DNA of 64,000 bases from an uncultured Candidatus Saccharibacteria bacterium (GCA_964434775.1 CAYSWH010000005.1:2706-66705), one strand, 5' to 3'. Counted from the first letter of the stretch, positions 9,188 through 28,825 are shown. Program-made: numbers and translations. The notes: generated from the sequence alone by a model not told the origin.

Positions 9188-9271
9188 TTCCATTGGTGGA
9201 AAAACATCAGGATCAAAAATTCGTAGTCTCCGCTTTCGCCCTGGTAGAGTGGGTGTTTGGGGTTTAGAATC
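9188..9271 (+). repeat. ~80-bp repeat unit, copy A (TTCCATTGGTGGAAA..CATCAGGAT..AAAAATTC..TCTCC.CTTTCG.CC.GGTAG.GTGGGTGT..GGGTT)
   Basis: Aligns with 11376-11455. It is preceded by a degenerate GTAG hairpin starting at 9170. Confidence 0.7.
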
Positions 9272-9333
9272 TAAACTTGACTAAATTAACAGTAGCTGTT
9301 AGAATATTTAACATAAGTTGTTAAAATTAGTAT

Positions 9334-10572
9334 ATGAGTCAAAATTTAGCTAGAAATATAAATGAAGATTTAATCTTGAATATCCAAAACACTCCTGTCA
9401 CTCTTCTCAATGGAGTGCGTCAAAGTGGTAAAAGCACCCTTTTAAAAGAACTGCAAAAACAAAAAATTGTAAGTGAATATATCACTTTAGATAGCCTGGA
9501 AACTCAAGCTCTACTTTCAGAATCTCCAGAAAAATATTTAGAAAGTCTGCCAACTGGAACTGCTATTGATGAAATCCAAAGGATGCCAGAGGTTTTTTTA
9601 AGCATCAAAAAAGTAGTAGATGAAAACCGCATGCCTGGCAGGTTTATTTTGAGTGGTTCTGCAAATGTTTTAGCTCTACCAAAACTGGCTGACTCTTTAG
9701 CTGGACGGATGCAGATCAATACTCTTTACCCTCTATCTTCTGGTGAAAAAAATGGAATTAAAGAAAACTTTATCGACTGGGCTTTTAATTCAAGTTCAAC
9801 TTTAAAAAGGGAAAAATCTGAAAAATTAGATTGGGAGGAAATGGTTTTAAATACTGGGTTCCCTGAAACTTATAAATCTAGTGGAACGGTTTTAGAAAAT
9901 TGGTATCAAGCCTTTGAAACTACTTTGATTCAAAAAGATATAAGAGAATTAAGCGACATTGAAAAACTTGGCTATATTCCTAAACTTTTGAGGTTAACTG
10001 CTGGCAGAGTGGCTTCTACGGTTAGTTATTCTGATCTAGCTAGAAGTCTTGAAATCTCCAATATGTCGGTCAAAAGATATTTAGAACTTTTAAAGGCTCT
10101 TTATTTAATTTTGGAAGTACCTGCTTGGAGTGGTAGTTATACCAAAAGACTGACTAAATCACCAAAGATTTTCTTTTTAGATAACGGGTTTTTGGGTTAT
10201 CAACTAGGTTTAGATAAAAATTATTTATTAAAAAACAGGGAAGTTTTTGGTAAAATGCTAGAAAACCTGATAGCTACGGAGTTAATTAAACAAGTCTCTT
10301 GGAGCGATGCCAGACCAAAAATTTATCATTTCAGAGAAGTTTCTGGGGAAGAAATTGATTTGATTTTGGAAAACAGACGAGGTGAAATTGTAGCCATTGA
10401 AGTAAAATCTAGTAATAGAATCAAACCAGAATATTTAAAAAACTTAAATAAATTTAAAGAAAAAATGGGGAATAAGGTTATCAAATATATTTTGGTTTAT
10501 ACTGGAGATCAGGTGGAAGTAGTCGGAGATACTTTGGTTTTGCCAGCCCAGAAGTTGTTTGAGAAATTTTAG
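9334..10572 (+). CDS. AAA+ ATPase with DUF4143 C-terminal domain (AAA_14 family), copy 2 (divergent paralogue)
   Basis: Walker A NGVRQSGKSTLL and Walker B GTAIDEIQ, with C-terminal KIFFLDNGF...EEIDLIL. It has the same architecture as 2778-3911 and shares AAATTAGTAT immediately before the start codon. Confidence 0.8.
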   Translation: MSQNLARNINEDLILNIQNTPVTLLNGVRQSGKSTLLKELQKQKIVSEYITLDSLETQALLSESPEKYLESLPTGTAIDEIQRMPEVFLSIKKVVDENRMPGRFILSGSANVLALPKLADSLAGRMQINTLYPLSSGEKNGIKENFIDWAFNSSSTLKREKSEKLDWEEMVLNTGFPETYKSSGTVLENWYQAFETTLIQKDIRELSDIEKLGYIPKLLRLTAGRVASTVSYSDLARSLEISNMSVKRYLELLKALYLILEVPAWSGSYTKRLTKSPKIFFLDNGFLGYQLGLDKNYLLKNREVFGKMLENLIATELIKQVSWSDARPKIYHFREVSGEEIDLILENRRGEIVAIEVKSSNRIKPEYLKNLNKFKEKMGNKVIKYILVYTGDQVEVVGDTLVLPAQKLFEKF

Positions 10573-10674
10573 TGTTTCAAATCACTTCTAAAAAACTGCA
10601 TGGGGTTTGGGGGTTTAGATTCCGTCAAGTTTATCCCAGTTTTGGTAGGTAAAATAATAACTTCACTTGCTCCT

Positions 10675-11283
10675 TCATTTTTTGAATATTTTTGATTTAG
10701 GATTAAGTGAGTCCAAATGCCAATTTAGAGGATTATAAAAAATATATTCTCGAATCCGATCCAAATCTTCTTGATCTCGAATAATATGATCATGAAATGA
10801 TTTTTGCCAGATTGTGTTATATTTTTGAATCAAAGTAGAGGCGATGCCCACATCGCCAACCGCTCCATTACCACCCACAACGCCAATTTCATTACCACAA
10901 ATAATCTCATCTTGTTTGATATAAAAAAGTGTCTTTTTCTTAAAAGCTTTTATAGTATTTCCTAAATTATTCTTATAATTATTAAATCCAATTATTGCAT
11001 GAAAATGATTTGGCATAATTACAAATTCATCCAAAATAATATCGTCATAAAATTTTAAACCATCCAACCAAGCTTTTTCTACATATTCCCCGATTATTGT
11101 TTTTTGTGGTTGTGGGGTTTTTGATTCTTGTAAATATGGCGATGAGGGCATCGCCTCTACGATATGGGATAAAATTTGTTTTTTGTCTTGCACACAAATC
11201 GTCACAAAATACCAATACCCGCCTTGATATAATTCTCTAAATGGTAATCGGTTTCGTTTTCGAATGAATTTTGGTTTTGGCAT
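10675..11283 (-). CDS. REP-associated tyrosine transposase (RAYT, IS200/IS605-like Y1 HUH transposase)
   Basis: YWYFVTICVQDKK near the N-terminus, HUH motif MPNHFHAIIGF, then WQKSFHDHIIRD and REYIFYNPLNW near the C-terminus. GTAG-hairpin REP elements lie in and around the gene. Confidence 0.75.
   Translation of the reverse strand: MPKPKFIRKRNRLPFRELYQGGYWYFVTICVQDKKQILSHIVEAMPSSPYLQESKTPQPQKTIIGEYVEKAWLDGLKFYDDIILDEFVIMPNHFHAIIGFNNYKNNLGNTIKAFKKKTLFYIKQDEIICGNEIGVVGGNGAVGDVGIASTLIQKYNTIWQKSFHDHIIRDQEDLDRIREYIFYNPLNWHLDSLNPKSKIFKK
10835..10857 (+). repeat. REP element (GTAG + hairpin) inside the RAYT gene
   Basis: GTAGAGGCGATGCCCACATCGCC, with stem GGCGATG/CATCGCC. It is read in-frame on the minus strand as GAVGDVGIASTL. 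Confidence 0.75.
11138..11160 (-). repeat. REP element (GTAG + hairpin) inside the RAYT gene, inverted relative to 10835-10857
   Basis: The plus strand is GGCGATGAGGGCATCGCCTCTAC. It encodes VEAMPSSP in the RAYT frame. A 26-nt segment (11136-11161) is identical to 15489-15514. Confidence 0.8.
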
Positions 11284-11305
11284 TTTGTCGTAAGTTAATT
11301 TTTTG

Positions 11306-11379
11306 GTAGCGGAAGACCTCCTCTTCCATTTTGACCGTACAATTTTATATTCCGTAGTAGCGGAAGTCCCCTGACTTCC
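11306..11379 (+). repeat. Two REP elements of a second family (GTAGCGGAAG..CTTCC)
   Basis: GTAGCGGAAGACCTCCTCTTCC (11306-11327) and GTAGCGGAAGTCCCCTGACTTCC (11357-11379). A degenerate relative, TTAGCGGAAGTCTCTGCTTTCC, lies at 8948-8969. Confidence 0.7.
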
Positions 11380-11455
11380 ATTGGTGGAAACACATCAGGA
11401 TTAAAAATTCCACCGTCTCCACTTTCGTCCAGGTAGGGTGGGTGTATGTTGGGTT
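11376..11455 (+). repeat. ~80-bp repeat unit, copy B
   Basis: Aligns with 9188-9271 and lies between the RAYT start and the OLD-gene stop. Confidence 0.7.
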
Positions 11456-11459
11456 ATTT

Positions 11460-13208
11460 TTAAAAAGGCATTTTTACTTCATCTAGCAAATCGCCTTCTT
11501 GACCATCTTCTAAATTGCCGAAATTATACTCCTCTGTTTTTATTTTTCCATCAATAAAATCAAGTAAATTTTGAGGCAAGAGATTATTAGGGAAATCTGC
11601 CTTTTGAAACTCTCTAACTTTATTCCAAACTGCAATATCACTCTTGTTTGTTTTATCAATTTCTAAAACTTTTTCTAAATTTCTTTTATTAAAATGAAGT
11701 CTATCTTCACTCTCAACTAATTCCATAATCTTTTGATTTTTAGTCCATTGTTGCCTATCTGCTTTTAGCTTATTTCTTACTTTTTGATTTTCTTTATCAC
11801 CTTCAATTTTTTCTATGTTTCGCAACTTATGAGGATTGATGTCATCATCTAAATCCCAGTCATGAATAATAAAATAATCTATTTTTAGAGCTTTGCAAAT
11901 TTGAATCAAGATTATTGACTTATCTTTGCCGTGAACTGGTAAAATAGCGATATTGTTATAATTTAAATAATGCTCATCTTCAAAATAAATACTGATAGCT
12001 TTAGAATAAGCCAATAAATCCATAGGTCCCTCAACCAAAATAACTTTATCACTAAAAACCAGTTTTCCTAAATTCGGTTCAATTTGTTGAATAAATTTTG
12101 AATTGTCTTTATATCTTTCTAAATTATAAGAAACAACAGCTTCTGGGTTTTCATCTGAAATATTTTCATTTGGCAATTTTGGTTCGAATGCTCCAGTCAA
12201 CTGATGAACTTTTGTTGATTTGCCATCATGAGAAAGCCTTATAATTGTTTCTGGACTAAATATATCAACCATTTTTTTACTATGAGTCGTATAAATTACT
12301 TGATTATTTTTTGCTAGTTCACAGAGGACTTTATTGTAAAAATATTCTTGATGGTTTTCGTGTAAAAATGTTTCTGGTTCTTCAAAAATAAAAACATTTC
12401 CTTTCTCGTTATTATCTTTCGCAATAGCTTGAAGCATGGCGATTATAAACATTGAAATATAGCCATCACCAAAATTTTCAATAGGCAAAATTCCATTTTC
12501 GGTTTTCAAGCTAAAAACCATTTTATAAAAAATATCTTCATAATTAGGAAGCCCAAATTTAAGTTCAAAATCTTCTTTTTCCTTTCTTAAAATTTCTTTT
12601 AAATGGGTTTGAGTATTATCTTTAAAGGTTTTAAAATCAGGAGCTAAACCTACATAATTTTCAATAGCAGGTTGTAAGGTTTGTTCTATCCAGTCTTTAA
12701 AATTACCATTATTGTCGTACTTATCTCTAAATTTTTTAAGAGTTTTACCAAGAAAGGTTTTTATTGAACCCCAGCTTGATTTAGTTTCCAACTGTTTTTT
12801 AATTTCGTGGAAATTTATATAGTAGATTGGTAGAGTTTTACCAAAGAAGCTCTTTTCCAGTCTCGGCTTCCAGCTATCACCTTCTCTATGCATGTAAAGA
12901 TGAGAAAGAGTATGGTCATAATCTAAACCGCATTCTTTACTTTCAAAAAAACTATTTATTTCTAAGTTTATATTTTTATCACAGTTAAAAAAATCTTTTT
13001 CGGAAAATTTATCTTCACCAAGCCATTCAACCCCCATTGTGTAAAGTAGTGATTTTATAATATTAGTTTTTCCAGTGTTGTTGTAACCTACAATTGAAAT
13101 TGGTTTGCCATTGCCCTCTTCAAAATCAGGAAAAACAATTTTTTGACCCTCACCATCAAAAGACCGATAATTTTTAATTTCTATTGAATTTATTTTTAAA
13201 TAAGACAC
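11460..13208 (-). CDS. OLD-family nuclease (ABC-type ATPase + C-terminal Toprim domain)
   Basis: The N-terminus INSIEIKNYRSF plus Walker A GYNNTGKTNIIKSL, and Walker B-like VFIFEEPETFLHENHQ. Toprim motifs are VILVEGPMDLLAY and IIHDWDLDDD. The start is a GTG 3 nt after the preceding small ORF. Confidence 0.75.
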   Translation of the reverse strand: MSYLKINSIEIKNYRSFDGEGQKIVFPDFEEGNGKPISIVGYNNTGKTNIIKSLLYTMGVEWLGEDKFSEKDFFNCDKNINLEINSFFESKECGLDYDHTLSHLYMHREGDSWKPRLEKSFFGKTLPIYYINFHEIKKQLETKSSWGSIKTFLGKTLKKFRDKYDNNGNFKDWIEQTLQPAIENYVGLAPDFKTFKDNTQTHLKEILRKEKEDFELKFGLPNYEDIFYKMVFSLKTENGILPIENFGDGYISMFIIAMLQAIAKDNNEKGNVFIFEEPETFLHENHQEYFYNKVLCELAKNNQVIYTTHSKKMVDIFSPETIIRLSHDGKSTKVHQLTGAFEPKLPNENISDENPEAVVSYNLERYKDNSKFIQQIEPNLGKLVFSDKVILVEGPMDLLAYSKAISIYFEDEHYLNYNNIAILPVHGKDKSIILIQICKALKIDYFIIHDWDLDDDINPHKLRNIEKIEGDKENQKVRNKLKADRQQWTKNQKIMELVESEDRLHFNKRNLEKVLEIDKTNKSDIAVWNKVREFQKADFPNNLLPQNLLDFIDGKIKTEEYNFGNLEDGQEGDLLDEVKMPF

Positions 13209-13211
13209 AAT

Positions 13212-13346
13212 TTATTTATTAAAGTTAATTTTAAATTCTTCTAAAAAATTTTTAAGATCAACTGCTTGATCATTATCTTTGTATTTTTCTTGAATTATTT
13301 GTCTTTGCTCATCTGTTAAAACATCTTCTAAAATTCTAATTTTCAT
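13212..13346 (-). CDS. 44-aa ORF translationally coupled between the Abi_C gene and the OLD gene
   Basis: MKIRILEDVLTDEQRQIIQEKYKDNDQAVDLKNFLEEFKINFNK*. Its ATG overlaps the TGA of the upstream gene (ATGA), and its stop is 3 nt before the GTG of the OLD gene. It falls below the ORF-track size cutoff. Confidence 0.45.
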   Translation of the reverse strand: MKIRILEDVLTDEQRQIIQEKYKDNDQAVDLKNFLEEFKINFNK

Positions 13347-14446
13347 AAAAAAACCGCACTGTCACTAAAACTTCTAATTTTTCCATTTTCAATAACATAT
13401 TCTAACAATTTTCGTTTTAAAAAATTATCACATTTTTCTAAAAAACTTTTTACTTCTGACTCTTTCAGTAATTCATCTCTTGTTTTTCGTTCATATTTTT
13501 CTCTAAATGGCTCTGAACGATTTTTATACGGTAAATTTTTATCAAAATTATCCAGTTCACTTTGCAACTCTTCAATTCTAAACTTTTGGTATTCTAAAAC
13601 ATCGTAAATAAAATCAATAAAAGCAAAAGCAGAATTTACAGCTAATTTTGCATGTCGTTTTGAAGGTTTAAACTTCCTACTATGACCATCTCCAGCAATG
13701 TTTCTTAAAGAAGCTAAACCGTTTAATATAGATGATAAACCTGTAATAATCTGCTTTAGAGAGTCATTTAATTGATTTTTTGGATCTAAATTTAATTCTT
13801 TTTTTAGTTTATTCCAGTATTGTTCAATTTTGCCATTTCTATCCAATTCTATATTAGTAGCTTCTTTATAAATTTCAATTAACACATCCTCAAGCAAACT
13901 TCTTACATTAGTAATTACCCCATCAAAATCACCTGAATCTAATTTTTTCTCTATTTTATCAAATTGCTCTAAAGCAAATTCTCTTGTAATTTTACCCTGA
14001 TTATAAATTTTAATTGTTGAATTATCATCTTGAATAAAAAATACTGGTTCAATATCTGTTATTTCTATTTCTTGGTAATCTTCTGGAATCTCACTACCAT
14101 ATCTTGGTACTAAAAATTTTGAAGTATAGTTTATTGGTTGTTTATAATAATTATCAATTTTAAAAACTTTACCAATTTTACTATATAATTTTTCAACTTC
14201 TTTTATATCTTGGATTAATTTAATCAATTCTCTACTGGGCTCTGCATTAAAATTACGATTTGTTTTACTTTTTTGATTCATGAAATCAAACAAATCATTC
14301 AATCTACTATGAAAACTTATACAAATTTCTTTTTCTAAACCTTTTAAATTTGAATATATTTCTTCATATAAATAATTTTTAGAGTAATCAAACTCTTCTA
14401 ATATTTGCTGAATTTTCTTATAAATTACTTCTTTTGAAACTGACAT
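13343..14446 (-). CDS. Abi_C (abortive-infection C-terminal)-domain protein with unknown N- and C-terminal regions
   Basis: The central segment ...GVITNVRSLLEDVLIEIYK...SSILNGLASLRNIAGDGHSRKFKPSKRHAKLAVNSAFAFIDFI matches the ..lRN..g.aHg......A.lavn.a..l..fl pattern I associate with Pfam Abi_C. The gene starts 5 nt after the MmeI-like gene stop. Confidence 0.55.
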   Translation of the reverse strand: MSVSKEVIYKKIQQILEEFDYSKNYLYEEIYSNLKGLEKEICISFHSRLNDLFDFMNQKSKTNRNFNAEPSRELIKLIQDIKEVEKLYSKIGKVFKIDNYYKQPINYTSKFLVPRYGSEIPEDYQEIEITDIEPVFFIQDDNSTIKIYNQGKITREFALEQFDKIEKKLDSGDFDGVITNVRSLLEDVLIEIYKEATNIELDRNGKIEQYWNKLKKELNLDPKNQLNDSLKQIITGLSSILNGLASLRNIAGDGHSRKFKPSKRHAKLAVNSAFAFIDFIYDVLEYQKFRIEELQSELDNFDKNLPYKNRSEPFREKYERKTRDELLKESEVKSFLEKCDNFLKRKLLEYVIENGKIRSFSDSAVFL

Positions 14447-14451
14447 AAATC

Positions 14452-17409
14452 CTACCCATTAAACCCCTTATAAATTTCAAACAACCACTCCACCCTCTCT
14501 ACATCGTCTTTGAAGCTGGTTTTTTTGGAAAACACCCCGTCAACCTTACGGTTGCCACCCCTCAAGAGGGGAATTGTCTGTAGGTAAGCTTCATCTACGG
14601 CTTTGTCCAATATCTGGTGAGCTTTGGTAAGTTCCGGTGGCATGGCTAAGGGGTCGTAGAGGTCGGCTAGGCTGGTATCTTTAAATTTGGCTCTGATTTC
14701 CAAAACCTCCTTTGCACATTTTTCTATTTTGGTTTTTAGATTCTCATTTTTGAGTTCTGGTTTATTTGGGATTTCACCGTCCACGCCTGACCATGGGAAG
14801 TTGTTGTAAACTACTAGATTTGAATAGCGATAATCAGATTTCATTCTTCCACAGGTATATTTTACCCAAGCCATATGCATTTTTGAAGTTAAGACTCCAA
14901 AGTGATAAAGATTTACATTTGGAACAATCAAACAAGTATCTCCAGCAATAAAATTAGACTGGAATAAACTTATTGGTATGTATTTTCTTCTTTCTGAACT
15001 AACTCTAGGAATTAAGATATAATCTGTATCAGGTTGTCTAATTTCTCCAAAAAGCATTGGAAATTCTCCTAATTTTCTGGTTGCTTCTCGACTACTTGAT
15101 AATCTCAATTCTTTAACTTTTTCTACTCTTTCCATAACTAACGGAAGTTTTTTGAGTTCGGTCGGCAAAACATCTTTTAGCCATAAACACCACCTATTCT
15201 GTCCGTTTAGGTATTCCTTAGCACTCAAAAGTGGTTTGATATATTTCTCTGCTTCTGGCTCTTTGGCTATAAATTCTTGTTTTTCTTGCTCTGTAAACAA
15301 AAAATTACCTCCATCGTTTGGCATGTTTCCAAAAACAATTTCAGGCACATTACAAATTGGCTTGCTCCTTTTGGTTATCACCACATTATCCGCTTCCACC
15401 AAATACGGATTGATATTTTTGACGGTTTTGGGGACTGGTTCGGCTTTTAAATCTGGGTAGGTGAAGAGGATTTTTGGTTGCGATGAAAATGGCGATGAGG
15501 GCATCGCCTCTACGGAGGATGCTACTCTAAACCCAATAATAATTACGGTTACTTGGGCTTTTCCTCGTGCCTCACTTGTCCAGCTAAAACTCTTGTGAGC
15601 AAATTTAATCTCCACCCCAAACCGTTTAAACATCTCGCCCCAAAGTATTCCCACCTGTTCACCTTGACTAATCGAATTAGTGGATACAAAAGCCGCTTCA
15701 ATTTTTGGATTTTGATTTAATAGCTCCCCAGCCTTGATATACCAAGCGGTTACATAATCCATAACTCCAGCACCATTCACCCCACTAAAAATTTCTTTCA
15801 TCTCGTTTCGTTGCTCTTTAGATTGAAGCCGTGAACCCACAAACGGAGGATTGCCGATGATGTAGATTTGTTGATTTTGCCAATTTTGTTGTAGAGGCGA
15901 ACCTGTTTCGCCATTATGGAGGGATAGACCCTCCGCTACAGAATCGTTGTTCGTCATCAAATTCTCCAGTCCAGCCAAATTTCCTTTTGGCGAATAATTG
16001 CCGTTTAGCACTTCCTCCCAGCTAACTTTTAAGGCATTTTCATGAACTATAGTTGCCTGTTTTTTTAGAGGAATACGGACAAAATACTGACCCAGATCTT
16101 TAGAAAGTTCTATATTAGCAATGTGATCCATCAGCCACAGAGCAGTTTCAGCGATTTTGGCAGGAAATTCCTCTATTTCAATTCCATAAAATTGATCAAC
16201 ATCAACTACAGAAAACAAAGAGGAATCTAAGGCTTCAGATCCATTTTTGTTTAAAAGTTTGATAACTTCCAATTCCAAATTTCGAATTTCTCGATAAGTT
16301 ATAACCAAAAAATTTCCACAACCACAGGCAGGGTCAAAGAATTTTAATTTTCCAAGTTTTTTGTGAAATTCCTTTAGCTTGTTTATATTCTTTTTACTCT
16401 TTTCAAATTCTTCCCAAAGATCATCCAAAAATAATGGCTTGATAGTTCTAAGAATTATTTTCTCTTCAGTGTAATGAGCTCCAAAACTTCTTCTTTTGTC
16501 TTTGTCCATGACGTATTGAAACAGTGAGCCAAAAATGGCAGGGCTAATTCCAGACCAATTGAATTTGCAAGCTTTGATCAAAGTTTGTCTCATTTTGGAA
16601 TCAAACTGTGGAGTTTCCATATTTCTAGCGAAAGCAAAAAGACCTCCGTTAATGTAGCAAAACCTAGCCAAATCTTCATCCAAATTTTTTAATCTTTCCT
16701 CTTCAGGTTTGTTTAAAATCTCAAAAATATATTTAATTTGAGAACCTAAATCACTACCATCCTTATTAGTCCTATTGATTAAATAGTCTGTAAAAATCGA
16801 CTTTTCAAAAATATTTGTATCTTCAGCAAAAAGAATAAAAAGCAGTCTAACCAAAAAAATCTCCAAATCATGTCCATGATAACCAACCTCAAACAAATCA
16901 TCGTGAATTTGCCCCATCAATTCAGCAGCCTGAATATTCACCATCTCCTGATTTTCATGAATTGTAGAGATTTGCCCACCCATGAACTTAAAACTGTCAA
17001 GATGTTCAGGTAAATTTTCAGTTTTTATTTCTAAAACTTTACCTGCCTGTTTATCTTCTAATCTTATATTTTCAAAATCTGAAACGATTGCGTAATTTGG
17101 ATATTCTTCATCACTCAAATCAACCAAATATTCACTACTTTGGGTTTGAGCTTTGTCCAAATCTTCCCCTTTTGATTTATGTTCACAAATCAAAATACCA
17201 GGCCAAAAAACATCGATAAAACCTCCTTTTTTATTCCCTAATCTTTGGGTATATTTTTCAAAGTCAGCCACTCTTTTTCTTTCAATTCCAAAGATATGAA
17301 AAAACTCATTCCAAAAAGTATCTTTTTCGGCTCGTTCCCGACTTTCATCTTTCCAATCATTAGCAAATTTAATCGCTCTACTTTTGATTTCGTTTGGAGA
17401 AATAGGCAT
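14452..17409 (-). CDS. MmeI-family type IIL/IIG restriction-modification enzyme (nuclease + N6-adenine methyltransferase + TRD)
   Basis: N-terminal nuclease motif D-X9-E-X-K in GFIDVFWPGILICEHKSKGEDLDKA. Methyltransferase motif I is FFDPACGCGNFLV and motif IV is IIGNPPFVGS. The ~985-aa length includes three in-frame REP-derived inserts. Confidence 0.8.
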   Translation of the reverse strand: MPISPNEIKSRAIKFANDWKDESRERAEKDTFWNEFFHIFGIERKRVADFEKYTQRLGNKKGGFIDVFWPGILICEHKSKGEDLDKAQTQSSEYLVDLSDEEYPNYAIVSDFENIRLEDKQAGKVLEIKTENLPEHLDSFKFMGGQISTIHENQEMVNIQAAELMGQIHDDLFEVGYHGHDLEIFLVRLLFILFAEDTNIFEKSIFTDYLINRTNKDGSDLGSQIKYIFEILNKPEEERLKNLDEDLARFCYINGGLFAFARNMETPQFDSKMRQTLIKACKFNWSGISPAIFGSLFQYVMDKDKRRSFGAHYTEEKIILRTIKPLFLDDLWEEFEKSKKNINKLKEFHKKLGKLKFFDPACGCGNFLVITYREIRNLELEVIKLLNKNGSEALDSSLFSVVDVDQFYGIEIEEFPAKIAETALWLMDHIANIELSKDLGQYFVRIPLKKQATIVHENALKVSWEEVLNGNYSPKGNLAGLENLMTNNDSVAEGLSLHNGETGSPLQQNWQNQQIYIIGNPPFVGSRLQSKEQRNEMKEIFSGVNGAGVMDYVTAWYIKAGELLNQNPKIEAAFVSTNSISQGEQVGILWGEMFKRFGVEIKFAHKSFSWTSEARGKAQVTVIIIGFRVASSVEAMPSSPFSSQPKILFTYPDLKAEPVPKTVKNINPYLVEADNVVITKRSKPICNVPEIVFGNMPNDGGNFLFTEQEKQEFIAKEPEAEKYIKPLLSAKEYLNGQNRWCLWLKDVLPTELKKLPLVMERVEKVKELRLSSSREATRKLGEFPMLFGEIRQPDTDYILIPRVSSERRKYIPISLFQSNFIAGDTCLIVPNVNLYHFGVLTSKMHMAWVKYTCGRMKSDYRYSNLVVYNNFPWSGVDGEIPNKPELKNENLKTKIEKCAKEVLEIRAKFKDTSLADLYDPLAMPPELTKAHQILDKAVDEAYLQTIPLLRGGNRKVDGVFSKKTSFKDDVERVEWLFEIYKGFNG
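15491..15513 (-). repeat. REP element inserted in-frame in the MmeI-like gene
   Basis: GGCGATGAGGGCATCGCCTCTAC, the same 23-mer as 11138-11160. It is translated as SVEAMPSSPFSS. Confidence 0.8.
15891..15939 (+). repeat. REP doublet (REPIN-like inverted pair) inserted in-frame in the MmeI-like gene
   Basis: GTAGAGGCGAACCTGTTTCGCC-ATTAT-GGAGGGATAGACCCTCCGCTAC, which is GTAG-hairpin ... hairpin-CTAC. It is translated on the minus strand as VAEGLSLHNGETGSPL, 13 codons upstream of NPPF. Confidence 0.75.
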
Positions 17410-17600
17410 GTCCCAAAATTCTTTAGAAGTTTTGAATTTTAGACAAGTTTAAAAGGTGAGTGAAGAATTTGAAAAGCAGAAGCTTTCCTCTACGGATTTT
17501 ATTTTTAAAAACCACCCTGTCAAAATGGCAAGGCAGGCCTACCTCTACGACCACTTCTTAGTCTTGAAACCGCAAGGGTTGTGTTGCGGGATGATTAGGT

Positions 17601-17897
17601 GATTAGAATTTTAATTTATAGTCTATCCGAATATAACCTATACATGCTTGTTACGGCGATCTTGTTTCGGCATCTCTTTCGAGAGTAGATCCTGAAATAA
17701 TAATTGTCATTCCGAACTTGTTTCGGAATCTCTTTCGAATAGATCCTGAAATAAATTCAGGATGACGGGGCAGTTTTGGTTTTCAGGATGACTGTGTGGT
17801 AAATTCAGGATGACGGGATAGCAAATTCAGCATGACCATTTGGCAATTGACGGAGTAAAATTTGGAATTGTCTAGATTTAAGAGGGGCTATATCTCA
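17601..17897 (+). repeat. Repeat cluster A: a third REP-like family ((G/A)TAGATCCTGAAATAAATTCAGGATGAC), a tandemly duplicated ~57-bp unit, and 4-5 copies of TTCAGGATGAC at 22-26 bp spacing
   Basis: Units at 17655-17711 and 17712-17766. TTCAGGATGAC occurs at 17756, 17782 and 17804, with TTCAGCATGAC at 17826. The 5' and 3' parts align with 20028-20186. Confidence 0.75.
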
Positions 17898-26728: not shown

Positions 26729-28825
26729 TTATTCAACCAATTTATAATTTTCGGTTAAGCTCTCTACCTCCTTTTTCTTTCCGTAAATCAAAACTCCCAG
26801 TAGGCCTACTTCATCACTTTGTTTAGATTCATGGGCCTGTTTTACTTTTTCGTCATCACTGCTGTCCTGCATTTCTTGGGTAAAGACAGTCACTTGCAAA
26901 CCTTGCTTTTCTGCCTCTCTTTTCAGCTCCCATAATTTCTGCCTGTTATCTGTCTGTTTATTCATTATAGAATGTTGAATATTCATCGGTAGATATTCAC
27001 CTTCCTTAGTTTTGGAGCCGTCCAGGTGAATCAACTGCTTTCCCTCTCTTGCTCCCAAAGAAGCTGTCAGATGAGCAACAGTATTTAATTTGGACCAAAA
27101 TGGTCTCTCGGGGGTATTCAAAATAACTGCATGAGCAGTCATAGTAACCCCGGATTTACCTATCGAGTTATCCTCGGAACGAACATGAGGGAATGTGACA
27201 CACTCTTTAATGTGCTTTCCAAGTAAAAACGACAATATTCTTTCACTGGCACCAAAACCGGCCATCGGCGGCGTGCCTAACTCCAAAGCCTTGACGTAAT
27301 CGTTATCCATAAACTGAGCCTCTTCGTCTCCGGCATCACGGGCAGCCTGTTGATCTTCAAAACGACCAAATTGATCCACAGGATCATTTAGTTCACTAAA
27401 ACACTTACCAAGTTCGGCTGTGCCTGCCACAATTTGCCATCTCTCGGTCAAATGAGGTTGATCGGGATTTCGCTTGGCTAGTGGCTCTAATTCAACAGGC
27501 ACGAGAGCTAAAAATATTGGATTATGCATATTGATCCTGGCAGTCTTTTTGTAAATTTTGTCCATTACCCTAGGAACATCGGCGTTAACTTCCAACTCAA
27601 CATTATTCTTTTCAGCTATTTCCTTGAGTTCCTGCAAATCCTTGTTTTCCAAGTCAACTTTCCCGGAAGAATAATGTCTAATAGCATCAAAGTAAGAAAT
27701 TACCGGCCACCCTTTTAAGTCTTGATCTAAGTCTACTTGCTTCTTGACCTCTTCGGCCGAAATAACTGTATCATGCCCAATCACCAAACCCCAACCGTTT
27801 TCTTTAGCCTCTCTTAAGGTACACCATTCTCCCCAATCTACTTCATGTCCGTAATAATCTATCTGAGTTAATTGGCCCAATATTTCCTCAACAATCCTTT
27901 GGTATACTCTTTTCATTAATTTCATTCCGTCTGTATAATCGGCATATGCCCAATACCATTCAATCTGAGTGTATTCCTGCAAATGCTGCGGACTGGAGCC
28001 TTCATTCCGAAAGATTCTCCCGATCTCAAAGACCTTTTCAAAACCCCCGGCAATTAATTTTTTTAAAGGCAACTCCAAAGAAATTCGTAAATAAACATCT
28101 TGATCTAATTCATTGTAAAAAGTAGTAAAAGGCTTCGCCTCGGCCCCTCCCGGGATGTGTTCAAAGATAGGACACTCTACTTCCAAAAAACCTTCCTTAA
28201 TAAGCTCTTCTCTCCAAATACTCCAATATTTGTGCTTTAATCTGACTAAATCACGAACCGAAAGATCATTTTGATCTTTAGTATTCATTTTAAAATCAAC
28301 TACCCTGTTGGTGTATCGCTCTTCAAAGTTCTCATAATCCATTTTTTCCGGCAATATTCGTAAAGATTTAGTCAAAATTGAAAGTTTACGCACAAAAAGA
28401 CTTGGCTCGCCCCTTTGAGAGTAGTCCAGATAACCTTCAGCCTGAATATAATCACCCTCGTCAACCAGAGACTTTAGAGAAGAAAAACTCAAACCTTGTT
28501 CTACGGAATCTTCTGCCGGTAGAAAATCCCTTCGAAATATTAACTGGAAACCTTCTGGAAGACTCTCATCCTCGATTGTTGTAAAAGCGATTTTCCCACT
28601 TACTCTCTTGGATTTAATGCGACCAACTAAAGTCCCTTCTTTGTCTTGATTGCCTACAAGATAACTTTTTTCTTGAAAGAGTTTTTTTGCTTCAGATAAA
28701 TTATAATCTCGCCTACTCTTTACAGAATAAGGATCGTGCCCGAGTTCTCGAATTCTTTTTACCTTTTCAAGCCTTATATCTCTCTGAGTCTCTGCAGAAG
28801 AGTAAGAAATGTTTTTATCTTGCAT
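26729..28825 (-). CDS. lysS: Lysine--tRNA ligase (class II) with internal insertion and ~150-aa C-terminal DUF2000-like extension
   Basis: OB-fold segment LVGRIKSKRVSGKIAFTTIED, GAEAKPF, motif 2 FRNEGSSPQHLQEYTQIEWY and motif 3 GFGASERILSFLLG. The usual end ..TFPHVRSED is followed by MTAHAVILNTPERPFWSKLNTVAHLTASLGAR... Confidence 0.85.
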   Translation of the reverse strand: MQDKNISYSSAETQRDIRLEKVKRIRELGHDPYSVKSRRDYNLSEAKKLFQEKSYLVGNQDKEGTLVGRIKSKRVSGKIAFTTIEDESLPEGFQLIFRRDFLPAEDSVEQGLSFSSLKSLVDEGDYIQAEGYLDYSQRGEPSLFVRKLSILTKSLRILPEKMDYENFEERYTNRVVDFKMNTKDQNDLSVRDLVRLKHKYWSIWREELIKEGFLEVECPIFEHIPGGAEAKPFTTFYNELDQDVYLRISLELPLKKLIAGGFEKVFEIGRIFRNEGSSPQHLQEYTQIEWYWAYADYTDGMKLMKRVYQRIVEEILGQLTQIDYYGHEVDWGEWCTLREAKENGWGLVIGHDTVISAEEVKKQVDLDQDLKGWPVISYFDAIRHYSSGKVDLENKDLQELKEIAEKNNVELEVNADVPRVMDKIYKKTARINMHNPIFLALVPVELEPLAKRNPDQPHLTERWQIVAGTAELGKCFSELNDPVDQFGRFEDQQAARDAGDEEAQFMDNDYVKALELGTPPMAGFGASERILSFLLGKHIKECVTFPHVRSEDNSIGKSGVTMTAHAVILNTPERPFWSKLNTVAHLTASLGAREGKQLIHLDGSKTKEGEYLPMNIQHSIMNKQTDNRQKLWELKREAEKQGLQVTVFTQEMQDSSDDEKVKQAHESKQSDEVGLLGVLIYGKKKEVESLTENYKLVE

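Follow-up and report, generated by a model that had tools for sequence, protein, structure and literature searches.

Why should a transposase gene carry two copies of a short hairpin repeat within its own reading frame, in opposite orientations and on either side of its catalytic motif? The question is raised by a 64,000-nucleotide stretch of DNA (the window) from an uncultured Candidatus Saccharibacteria bacterium (GCA_964434775.1 CAYSWH010000005.1:2706-66705). Here a gene resembling those that encode REP-associated tyrosine transposases (RAYTs, where REP stands for repetitive extragenic palindromic element) holds two GTAG-footed hairpins, termed site 1 and site 2 (coordinates in Table 1). 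Most likely the open reading frame (ORF) encodes a RAYT, or TnpA-REP, of subclass 2.4, which equals group 4 of Bertels, and the GTAG elements are the REPs of this RAYT, housed in tolerated surface loops. The signal is found at the DNA level and not at the protein level: the arms are near-identical though the peptides that they encode are unrelated. A preliminary description of the window had taken the two copies as incidental insertions; in each of the close homologues examined they instead form an inverted pair that is conserved and polarised, with arms that evolve in concert. The locus is thus a fresh example, and a modestly new architectural variant, of a phenomenon already described.

The ORF translation contains the motifs MPNHFHAII and YIFYNP, and the catalytic residues are H93 and H95 for HuH (NHFH, residues 92-95), W159 and Q160 for WQ, and Y180 for the tyrosine of YIFYNP (180-185). 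H93, H95, Y180 and N184 were invariant in an alignment of 30 RAYT homologues. The initial proposal of a RAYT with a HuH-Y1 layout was borne out by Pfam Y1_Tnp (E 7e-4, 20.2 bits; family cut-off 23), by NCBIfam NF047646 (REP_Tyr_transpos; E 8e-20, 71.3 bits; cut-off 80), by a profile match and by Foldseek. When the profile of the 30 homologues was compared with PDB sequences, it matched E. coli TnpA-REP (4ER8, E 4e-6). The profile segment WQKSFxDHxIR aligned to the GTAG-contact segment WQPRFWEHAIR of 4ER8, so that W159, Q160, D165, H166 and R169 of the RAYT correspond to W94, Q95, E100, H101 and R104, and EYIxNNP aligned to the Tyr motif. The AlphaFold (AF2) model of the RAYT had a pLDDT of 75.5, and its best Foldseek match in PDB was 4ER8_A (E 1.2e-5, prob 1.00) with a TM score of only 0.47/0.57, followed by the ISDra2 and IS608 transposases.

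The RAYT was assigned to subclass 2.4 from its motifs and from its homology to members in cyanobacteria, Bacteroidetes and Chloroflexi. This subclass is characterised by NH[IFV]H, WQ and YIxNNP, a median length of 194 aa and the lack of a tail domain (Quentin, Siguier, Chandler & Fichant 2018, PMC6006769, Table 1). The NHFH, the WQ and the length of 202 aa of the RAYT fit this description. The Tyr motif is the one deviation, since YIFYNP has Y for the second N of YIxNNP; the consensus of the close homologues is EYIxNNP.

Both copies of the hairpin (family 1) were present at the coordinates given in the preliminary description, and the in-frame read-through of both was confirmed. Site 1 lies in the beta1-to-alphaA loop upstream of HuH, and site 2 at the alphaC-to-beta4 junction just before WQ. 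As a pair they give a 24-nt inverted repeat with 96% complementarity, whose arms are 278 nt apart. Read in opposite directions the two arms yield unrelated peptides, yet as DNA their 23-mers are identical at 22/23 positions, the single mismatch being a loop base. Because site 1 is in sense and site 2 is inverted, the GTAG feet point outward and bracket the HuH-coding core. In the architecture of family 1, a single nucleotide separates the GTAG foot from a 7-bp stem (GGCGATG), which closes a 4-nt loop. This falls within the published definition of a GTAG REP, under which GT[AG]G precedes the stem by 0-2 nt on its 5' side; the stem is fully paired over at least 7 nt, its first 4 bases include at least 3 G/C, and the loop measures 2-5 nt (PMC6006769, Methods). 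Three copies of the family-1 23-mer were found in the window, against 0 expected from dinucleotide shuffles; the third, at 15491-15513, does not appear in the preliminary description.

Relative to insert-free members of the subclass, the RAYT has ~11-13 extra aa at site 1 and ~22 extra aa at site 2, in agreement with the earlier suggestion that relatives have short loops at these positions. Residues 32-62 of the model are coil, with pLDDT <50 at residues 43-54, which covers most of site 1; pLDDT is likewise <50 at residues 133-141, and site 2 abuts that loop. Both copies lie in coil or low-pLDDT regions.

Analysis of the close homologues indicated that the pair itself is conserved. In 8/8 close homologues with DNA, the best intragenic inverted repeat was the site 1/site 2 pair, with arms of 24-34 nt in general and of 66 nt at locus L095, where a 66-nt composite of two hairpins and a spacer is duplicated as an exact mirror image. 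The two arms agree within each gene, and the hairpin differs between genes: the in-gene type is GGCGATG in the window and in L088, L085 and L093, GGAACC in L090, GTCGGCG in L092 and L094, and GGCGGG plus GGGAAAC in L095. The arms are identical in L088, whose protein shares 69% aa identity with that of the window, and near-identical in L085 and L093 (~49%). In most loci no further copy of the in-gene variant lay within +/-10 kb, which makes the two arms the closest relatives of one another and not draws from an abundant pool. The identities of the N-terminal, core and C-terminal parts are uneven (e.g., 79/50/85% against L090), a pattern also expected from ordinary conservation differences, and with regard to the idea of the core as a swapped module, L085 and L093 share the hairpin despite their divergent core.

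These data bear on the reading that the two segments are native functional peptide loops and that the palindromic DNA is incidental. Extra residues do occur at the same two alignment positions in every close homologue, which would suit such loops. However, the peptides at these positions are variable (VEAMPSSP, VAEPLRFQ, VESATSPT, VGAGSIPP and others) and it is the palindromic DNA architecture that is conserved; the arms are ~96-100% identical as DNA while encoding unrelated peptides; insert-free homologues exist; and the same 23-mer is found elsewhere, in frame in an unrelated 372-aa ORF of L087 and in intergenic DNA of L084, L086 and L090. The refuting condition named in the preliminary description, orthologues with the same peptides and no palindromic DNA, therefore did not hold: at both sites the homologues have palindromes of their own, and these differ. 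The arm identity, the variable peptides and the insert-free homologues contradict the native-peptide reading, and we regard it as highly improbable.

Several further observations were made on the in-gene hairpins. Next to site 2, window positions 10858-10890 may hold a decayed hairpin copy (GGCGTTGTGGGTGG versus GGCGATGTGGGCAT). A 21-nt inverted repeat, 95% complementary (CTACTTTGATTCAAAAAGATA), links the PDC-S01 gene (9920-9940) with the RAYT gene (10818-10838); it adjoins site 2 and takes in the CTAC foot, both of its copies encode TLIQK in sense, and it is probably a codon-usage coincidence in an AT-rich genome. Partial tandem re-duplication of hairpin arms beside in-gene REPs was seen at L085 525-1343, L093 3784-4494 and L094 10001-10663. 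The re-duplicated arms give low-complexity peptides: SPSPCESPSPCESPSPYETPSPPS and DGDAIDGDAIDGDGGIAST in L085, whereas L093 and L094 have GDGGIAST / VGEGADST units, two or three in number. At L090 the exact family-1 23-mer occurs outside called genes at 13997-14019 and 16770-16792. The UvrB of L090 (741 aa) and that of L091 (724 aa) were considered as a REP insertion or deletion and this was rejected, the two loci being 99.8% identical with only 3 gap positions.

The survey was then widened to 52 subclass-2.4-like genes from many phyla. The density of GT[AG]G hairpins was 2.54/kb in the gene, 0.69/kb within 0-1 kb and ~0.1/kb beyond 1 kb, a ~25-fold excess of the gene over the DNA at >1 kb. 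Of the 52 genes, 36 had at least one hairpin inside and 32 at least two. Three layouts were distinguished. Two of them occupy one loop, as a double-foot palindrome or as an adjacent dimer, and the third is a pair split around HuH. This last layout was detected in the clade of the window and in six other genome loci, mostly metagenome-assembled genomes of Clostridia/Eubacteriales. Its order was always sense then antisense, and the elements before HuH comprised 14 in '+' and 2 in '-' orientation. An intragenic inverted repeat with at least 16 matches was found in 19/46 RAYT genes, compared with 24/707 control ORFs from the same loci.

By analogy with E. coli TnpA-REP, the RAYT would bind the GTAG foot and hairpin on single-stranded DNA and would nick and rejoin there, the REP-bearing GTAGAGGCGATGCCCTCATCGCCA on either strand being its candidate substrate. 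Its activity may seed REP copies, mostly near its own gene. The in-gene REPs would sit in surface loops that tolerate at least 8 extra residues, and the arms may be kept alike by copying from one to the other, since inverted repeats so close together could undergo gene conversion or template switching, or alternatively by selection to match the specificity of the RAYT. As a consequence, enzyme and recognition site would be inseparable by recombination or transfer, in the manner of a REPtron with its ends moved inside the ORF.

Several points weigh against this explanation. The Y1_Tnp and NF047646 scores are near misses under the curated cut-offs, probably because of the inserts; both models derive from insert-free proteins and align only residues 83-186 of the RAYT or less. 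Part of site 2 is modelled as the start of a helix (residues 145-155, moderate confidence), and the site is therefore not a clean loop. The intergenic REPs of L090 are of the GGCGATG type and its own RAYT hairpin is GGAACC, which shows that an enzyme and the REPs near it need not match. The L090 organism probably has more than one RAYT/REP pair, or else strains share REP families. Only 4 other metagenome contigs contained the exact 23-mer, and the window has ~10 elements in one 8.7-kb stretch; the family is of low copy, which lends no support to active proliferation. The link between protein and hairpin is predicted from sequence, structure model and analogy. Finally, no excision or inversion joint at the arms was found in the Logan contigs of four microbial-mat runs, contigs being a weak test; the 'skips' in Logan contigs over 8800-17700 are partial matches of paralogous contigs.

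Some of these points would also suit hairpins that are not mobilised by the RAYT, being passive or otherwise-propagated repeats spread by recombination, by another enzyme or with an acquired defence island, with the RAYT-like protein a domesticated HuH enzyme of another role whose loops merely tolerate GC-rich palindromes. The low copy number, the L090 mismatch and the position of all elements inside a lower-GC defence island at 8.9-17.6 kb are in line with this, as are the low-abundance flanking 16-mers that were all that Bertels et al. found for group 4 (Bertels et al. 2017, PMC5581495). Moreover, the mobility of REPs by any RAYT is a hypothesis in the literature, never directly demonstrated (Di Nocera, De Gregorio & Rocco 2013, PMC3733652; PMC6006769). 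Clustering in the island could reflect either cis-preferential action or co-transfer. However, hairpin density peaks in the RAYT gene and falls with distance across the 52 loci, which is unexpected for passengers; the elements have in common the GTAG foot, the expected contact of the conserved W-Q...D-H..R segment (PMC6006769); and the orthologous loops of an MmeI-like gene in the same island carry different REPs, implying turnover. We therefore consider it unlikely that the hairpins are not mobilised by the RAYT.

The inverted pair might also be a selected cis-acting element and not a tolerated passenger, which seems to us rather unlikely. Three forms can be envisaged. The arms may pair in the mRNA as a ~24-bp stem enclosing the HuH core, acting as an RNase III target or a translation block in autoregulation; the enzyme may bind the hairpins of its own gene or mRNA and limit its own expression; or the core may be inverted or excised on the DNA via the pair as an on/off switch. 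Co-variation of arms that are near-identical within each gene and different between genes, the strict polarity ('+' before HuH and '-' after) in two clades with different second loops, the exact mirror duplication in L095 and the lack of another local copy in most loci all speak for such an element, and the minimum free energy RNA fold of 10820-11175 pairs the arms (-93.5 kcal/mol, z -4.0), on thermodynamics only. On the other hand, template switching or gene conversion can yield concerted close inverted repeats without selection, and a long-range mRNA stem would be unwound by translation. Many subclass 2.4 genes have the one-loop double-foot palindrome or dimer and some have none, which shows that the family can do without the split pair. 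One foot in L092 is mutated to GTAA, the arms have drifted to 21/24 in L061 and 19/25 in L008, and an inverted or deleted form was not seen in the four runs (contigs only). If functional, the feet-outward pair would be a co-evolving cis element, that is internalised REPtron ends serving self-limitation or the inversion or excision of the HuH core; this would explain the '+ then -' polarity in independent clades, the L095 mirror and the arms being the only close copies, and we hold it as a minor possibility beside the preferred reading of tolerated REPs.

With respect to known systems, the in-gene position itself is not the unusual feature that the preliminary description had called particularly odd. 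In-frame insertion of REPs inside subclass 2.4 tnpA-REP genes is a described hallmark (PMC6006769), and intragenic GTAG REPs have been catalogued in many genes, together with REPs overlapping transposase gene ends (PMC3733652). The RAYT shares with subclass 2.4 and group 4 (PMC6006769; PMC5581495) the motif types, a length near ~194 aa, the absence of a C-terminal tail domain, GTAG-footed REPs whose stems start with G-C pairs and lie in frame in peripheral loops, the scattered taxonomy and the low abundance of the associated repeats. It differs in that the copies lie before HuH (beta1:alphaA) and in the alphaC:beta4 loop as a feet-outward pair with concerted arms. No description of a split, co-varying inverted pair was found in the text of these papers; their figures, including Figure S10 of PMC6006769, were outside the comparison.

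Like E. coli TnpA-REP and its REPtron (4ER8; subclass 2.2), the RAYT has the same fold, the GTAG-contact segment WQ...[ED]H..R and inverted REPs by the gene. However, the E. coli REPs and bacterial interspersed mosaic elements (BIMEs) are extragenic, gene-flanking, long, bulged and present in hundreds of copies, whereas the REPs of the window are short, perfect, of low copy and inside the ORF, and the E. coli motifs are DHLH and YIHYNP as against NHFH and YIFYNP. The intragenic REPs of Di Nocera et al. (PMC3733652) and the Rickettsia palindromic elements (RPEs) are also in-frame palindromes in functional genes, often single units or dimers encoding ~8-30 aa, plausibly loops, and the MmeI-like gene is such a case. 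In the survey of Di Nocera et al. (PMC3733652) REPs overlap only the 5' or 3' ends of transposase genes, in contrast to the internal pair of the RAYT gene, and RPEs are 100-150 bp long and unrelated in sequence; Proteobacteria, Opitutus and Rickettsia are the hosts of these elements. In REPINs (Bertels & Rainey 2011, PMC3116915) two inverted REPs act as a unit, a layout which the dimer at 15891-15939 fits, although it occurs once in the window. Unlike a REPIN with its short spacer, the RAYT pair has 278 nt of essential coding sequence between its arms, and it is neither a dispersed unit nor repeated as one. IS200/IS605 TnpA is the same type of Y1 HuH enzyme, recognising imperfect single-stranded hairpins that bracket enzyme-coding DNA. 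Its left-end and right-end (LE/RE) hairpins are in direct orientation outside the ORF and multi-copy, with DH[VI]H and Y...Q motifs and often a tnpB, whereas here the motifs are NHFH/YIFYNP, the hairpins are inverted and intragenic, a single copy is present in the window and no tnpB adjoins it.

Table 1. Positions of the putative RAYT gene, the MmeI-like gene and the REP-type elements, counted from the first nucleotide of the window.
Feature	Position	Strand	Description
RAYT / TnpA-REP subclass 2.4-like gene (putative)	10675..11283	-	ORF call; 202 aa
Intragenic REP, site 1	11137..11160 (23-mer 11138-11160)	-	sense within RAYT; GTAGAGGCGATGccctCATCGCCA; read VEAMPSSP, residues 42-49
Intragenic REP, site 2	10835..10858 (23-mer 10835-10857)	+	antisense within RAYT; GTAGAGGCGATGCCCACATCGCC; read GDVGIAST, residues 143-150
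Extragenic REP upstream of RAYT start codon	11306..11327	+	GTAGC GGAAGA cctcc TCTTCC; 6-bp perfect stem
Composite element, ~95 nt	11357..11450	+	REP head 11357-11379, then conserved ~70-nt tail
Second copy of ~95-nt composite	9170..9265	+	REP head degenerate, GTAGAGGAGGGCTGGCCGTTCC
Degenerate family-2 relic	8948..8969	+	TTAGCGGAAGTCTCTGCTTTCC; TTAG for GTAG (foot G lost), imperfect stem
Third family-1 23-mer copy	15491..15513	-	in frame in MmeI-like gene; read VEAMPSSP
REP dimer, feet outward	15891..15939	.	in frame in MmeI-like gene; read SVAEGLSLHNGETGSPLQ
Extragenic REP, one stem mismatch	17471..17493	-	upstream of MmeI-like gene; GTAGA GGAAAGC ttct GCTTTTC
Degenerate relic	~17525-17548		near the 17471-17493 REP
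MmeI-like type IIG restriction-modification gene	14452..17409	-	985 aa; PDB 5HR4 (MmeI) E 6e-269; PADLOC REase_MTase_IIG

Besides the two in-gene copies, two GTAG REPs are located 23-96 nt upstream of the RAYT start codon. Both belong to family 2 and were confirmed as perfect hairpins, with stems of 6 bp (11306-11327) and 7 bp (11357-11379; GTAGC GGAAGTC ccct GACTTCC). In general the elements consist of GTAG, A or C, a stem of the form GG...CC (6-7 bp, loop 4-5 nt) and AT, giving a GC-rich unit of 23-24 nt. The REP head at 11357-11379 falls within the definition of PMC6006769, and the elements with 6-bp stems (11306, 15891, 15918) are 1 bp short of it. Single-stranded DNA folds of the hairpins gave -4.2 to -8.5 kcal/mol (z -3.3 to -6.6). 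The copy proposed at 8948-8969 stands as a family-2 relic, but the GTAG foot claimed for it does not, and its stem is imperfect. The dimer consists of GTAGCGGAGGGtctatCCCTCC (- strand) and GTAGAGGCGAAcctgtTTCGCC (+ strand), its units being listed as 15891-15912 (+) and 15918-15939 (-). Like the elements at 9170, 17471-17493 and ~17525-17548, the dimer is an addition to those of the preliminary description. A third copy of the ~95-nt composite was found at L092 3099-3170, upstream of a RAYT homologue with 51% identity, and the composite had no Rfam match. In the composite, the stem of the REP head varies with compensatory changes and the tail CCATTGGTGGAAAnACATCAGGATnAAAAATTCC...GTCTCCACTTTCGTCCAGGTAGGGTGGGTGT is conserved.

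Over-representation of the REPs in the genome, as anticipated in the preliminary description, held locally only. The heptamer GTAG[AC]GG occurred 21 times in the window against 5.7 expected (maximum 15 in 200 Markov simulations); in the 64 kb of the genome covered, the family is of low copy and clustered near the gene. All of the ~10 hairpin-supported elements lie within 8.9-17.6 kb and none in the other 55 kb of the window. No tRNA or Rfam match fell on the repeats when the window was scanned: none passed the gathering threshold, and the single match with E<1 had E 0.26, a chance level. At 17640-17830 there is a cluster of a different, non-GTAG palindromic repeat (e.g., CATTCCGAActtgtTTCGGAATC, with ATCCTGAAataaaTTCAGGAT ~4 times). 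The assembler depth here is ~74 compared with ~12 in the neighbourhood and many separate contigs end there, indicating that this repeat is truly high-copy in the community or genome.

The MmeI-like gene offers a comparison for the in-frame REPs outside the RAYT. MmeI (5HR4) has an 11-aa gap exactly at SVEAMPSSPFS of the MmeI-like protein, and the dimer sits in a ~41-aa linker absent from MmeI and from distant orthologues. The closest MmeI-like orthologue without the 15491-15513 REP, P0129 (71% identity), has a plain loop there, orthologues P0128, P0130, P0131 and P0132 have different GTAG-type inserts in that loop, and in distant orthologues the loop lacks an insert. P0129 also has a dimer at the second site; it shares the architecture of the window dimer, and its stems are different and still self-complementary. 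In-frame gain and turnover of REPs are therefore common in this lineage, the same loops holding varied REPs or none. The filled site of the window and the empty site of P0129 differ by 30 nt in length, but the loop has diverged, and neither a clean boundary nor a target duplication was seen. The insert hot-spot loops of P0128-P0132 align to window residues 471-514 and 630-642. P0132 contains long insert arrays (VEAGFTHQ..VAEDLSLQ..VEESLGFQ..VAQNLGFQ..) plus WNHRGSAT, the same peptide type as at site 2 of the L090 RAYT.

If the in-gene pair is functional, a domesticated transposase would have in it a new means of remaining linked to its target, or of regulating itself through that target. If it is not, the locus would show that the loops of defence genes (MmeI-like) in AT-rich uncultivated bacteria repeatedly tolerate short in-frame GTAG hairpins. 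Since the spread of REPs and the true role of RAYTs are unproven in general, a 600-bp gene supplying the protein and two substrates, with natural hairpin variants, makes a compact natural test bed for the REP/RAYT role. For annotation, GC-rich peptides such as VEAMPSSP, GxxGIAST and SPLQ are to be seen as repeat-derived.

The lower-GC defence island around the RAYT gene (window 9334-17409) comprises a PDC-S01 ATPase, the RAYT, an Old/GajA-like nuclease, AbiJ and the MmeI-like enzyme. RAYT homologues likewise have defence or toxin-antitoxin genes around them: their neighbours include GmrSD in L093, a methylase/helicase/PIN set in L095 and YafQ and PemK toxins in L088, and the RAYT of L094 lies between type I hsdS and hsdR. 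Two paralogous AAA_14/DUF4143 (PADLOC PDC-S01) ATPase genes of the window (2778-3911 and 9334-10572) are located within 7 kb of each other, and two large ORFs between them (4311-6329 and 6274-7527) gave no match in Pfam. Further along, at 26729-28825, an ORF for a class II (Asp/Lys/Asn-type) tRNA synthetase is fused to a C-terminal DUF2000.

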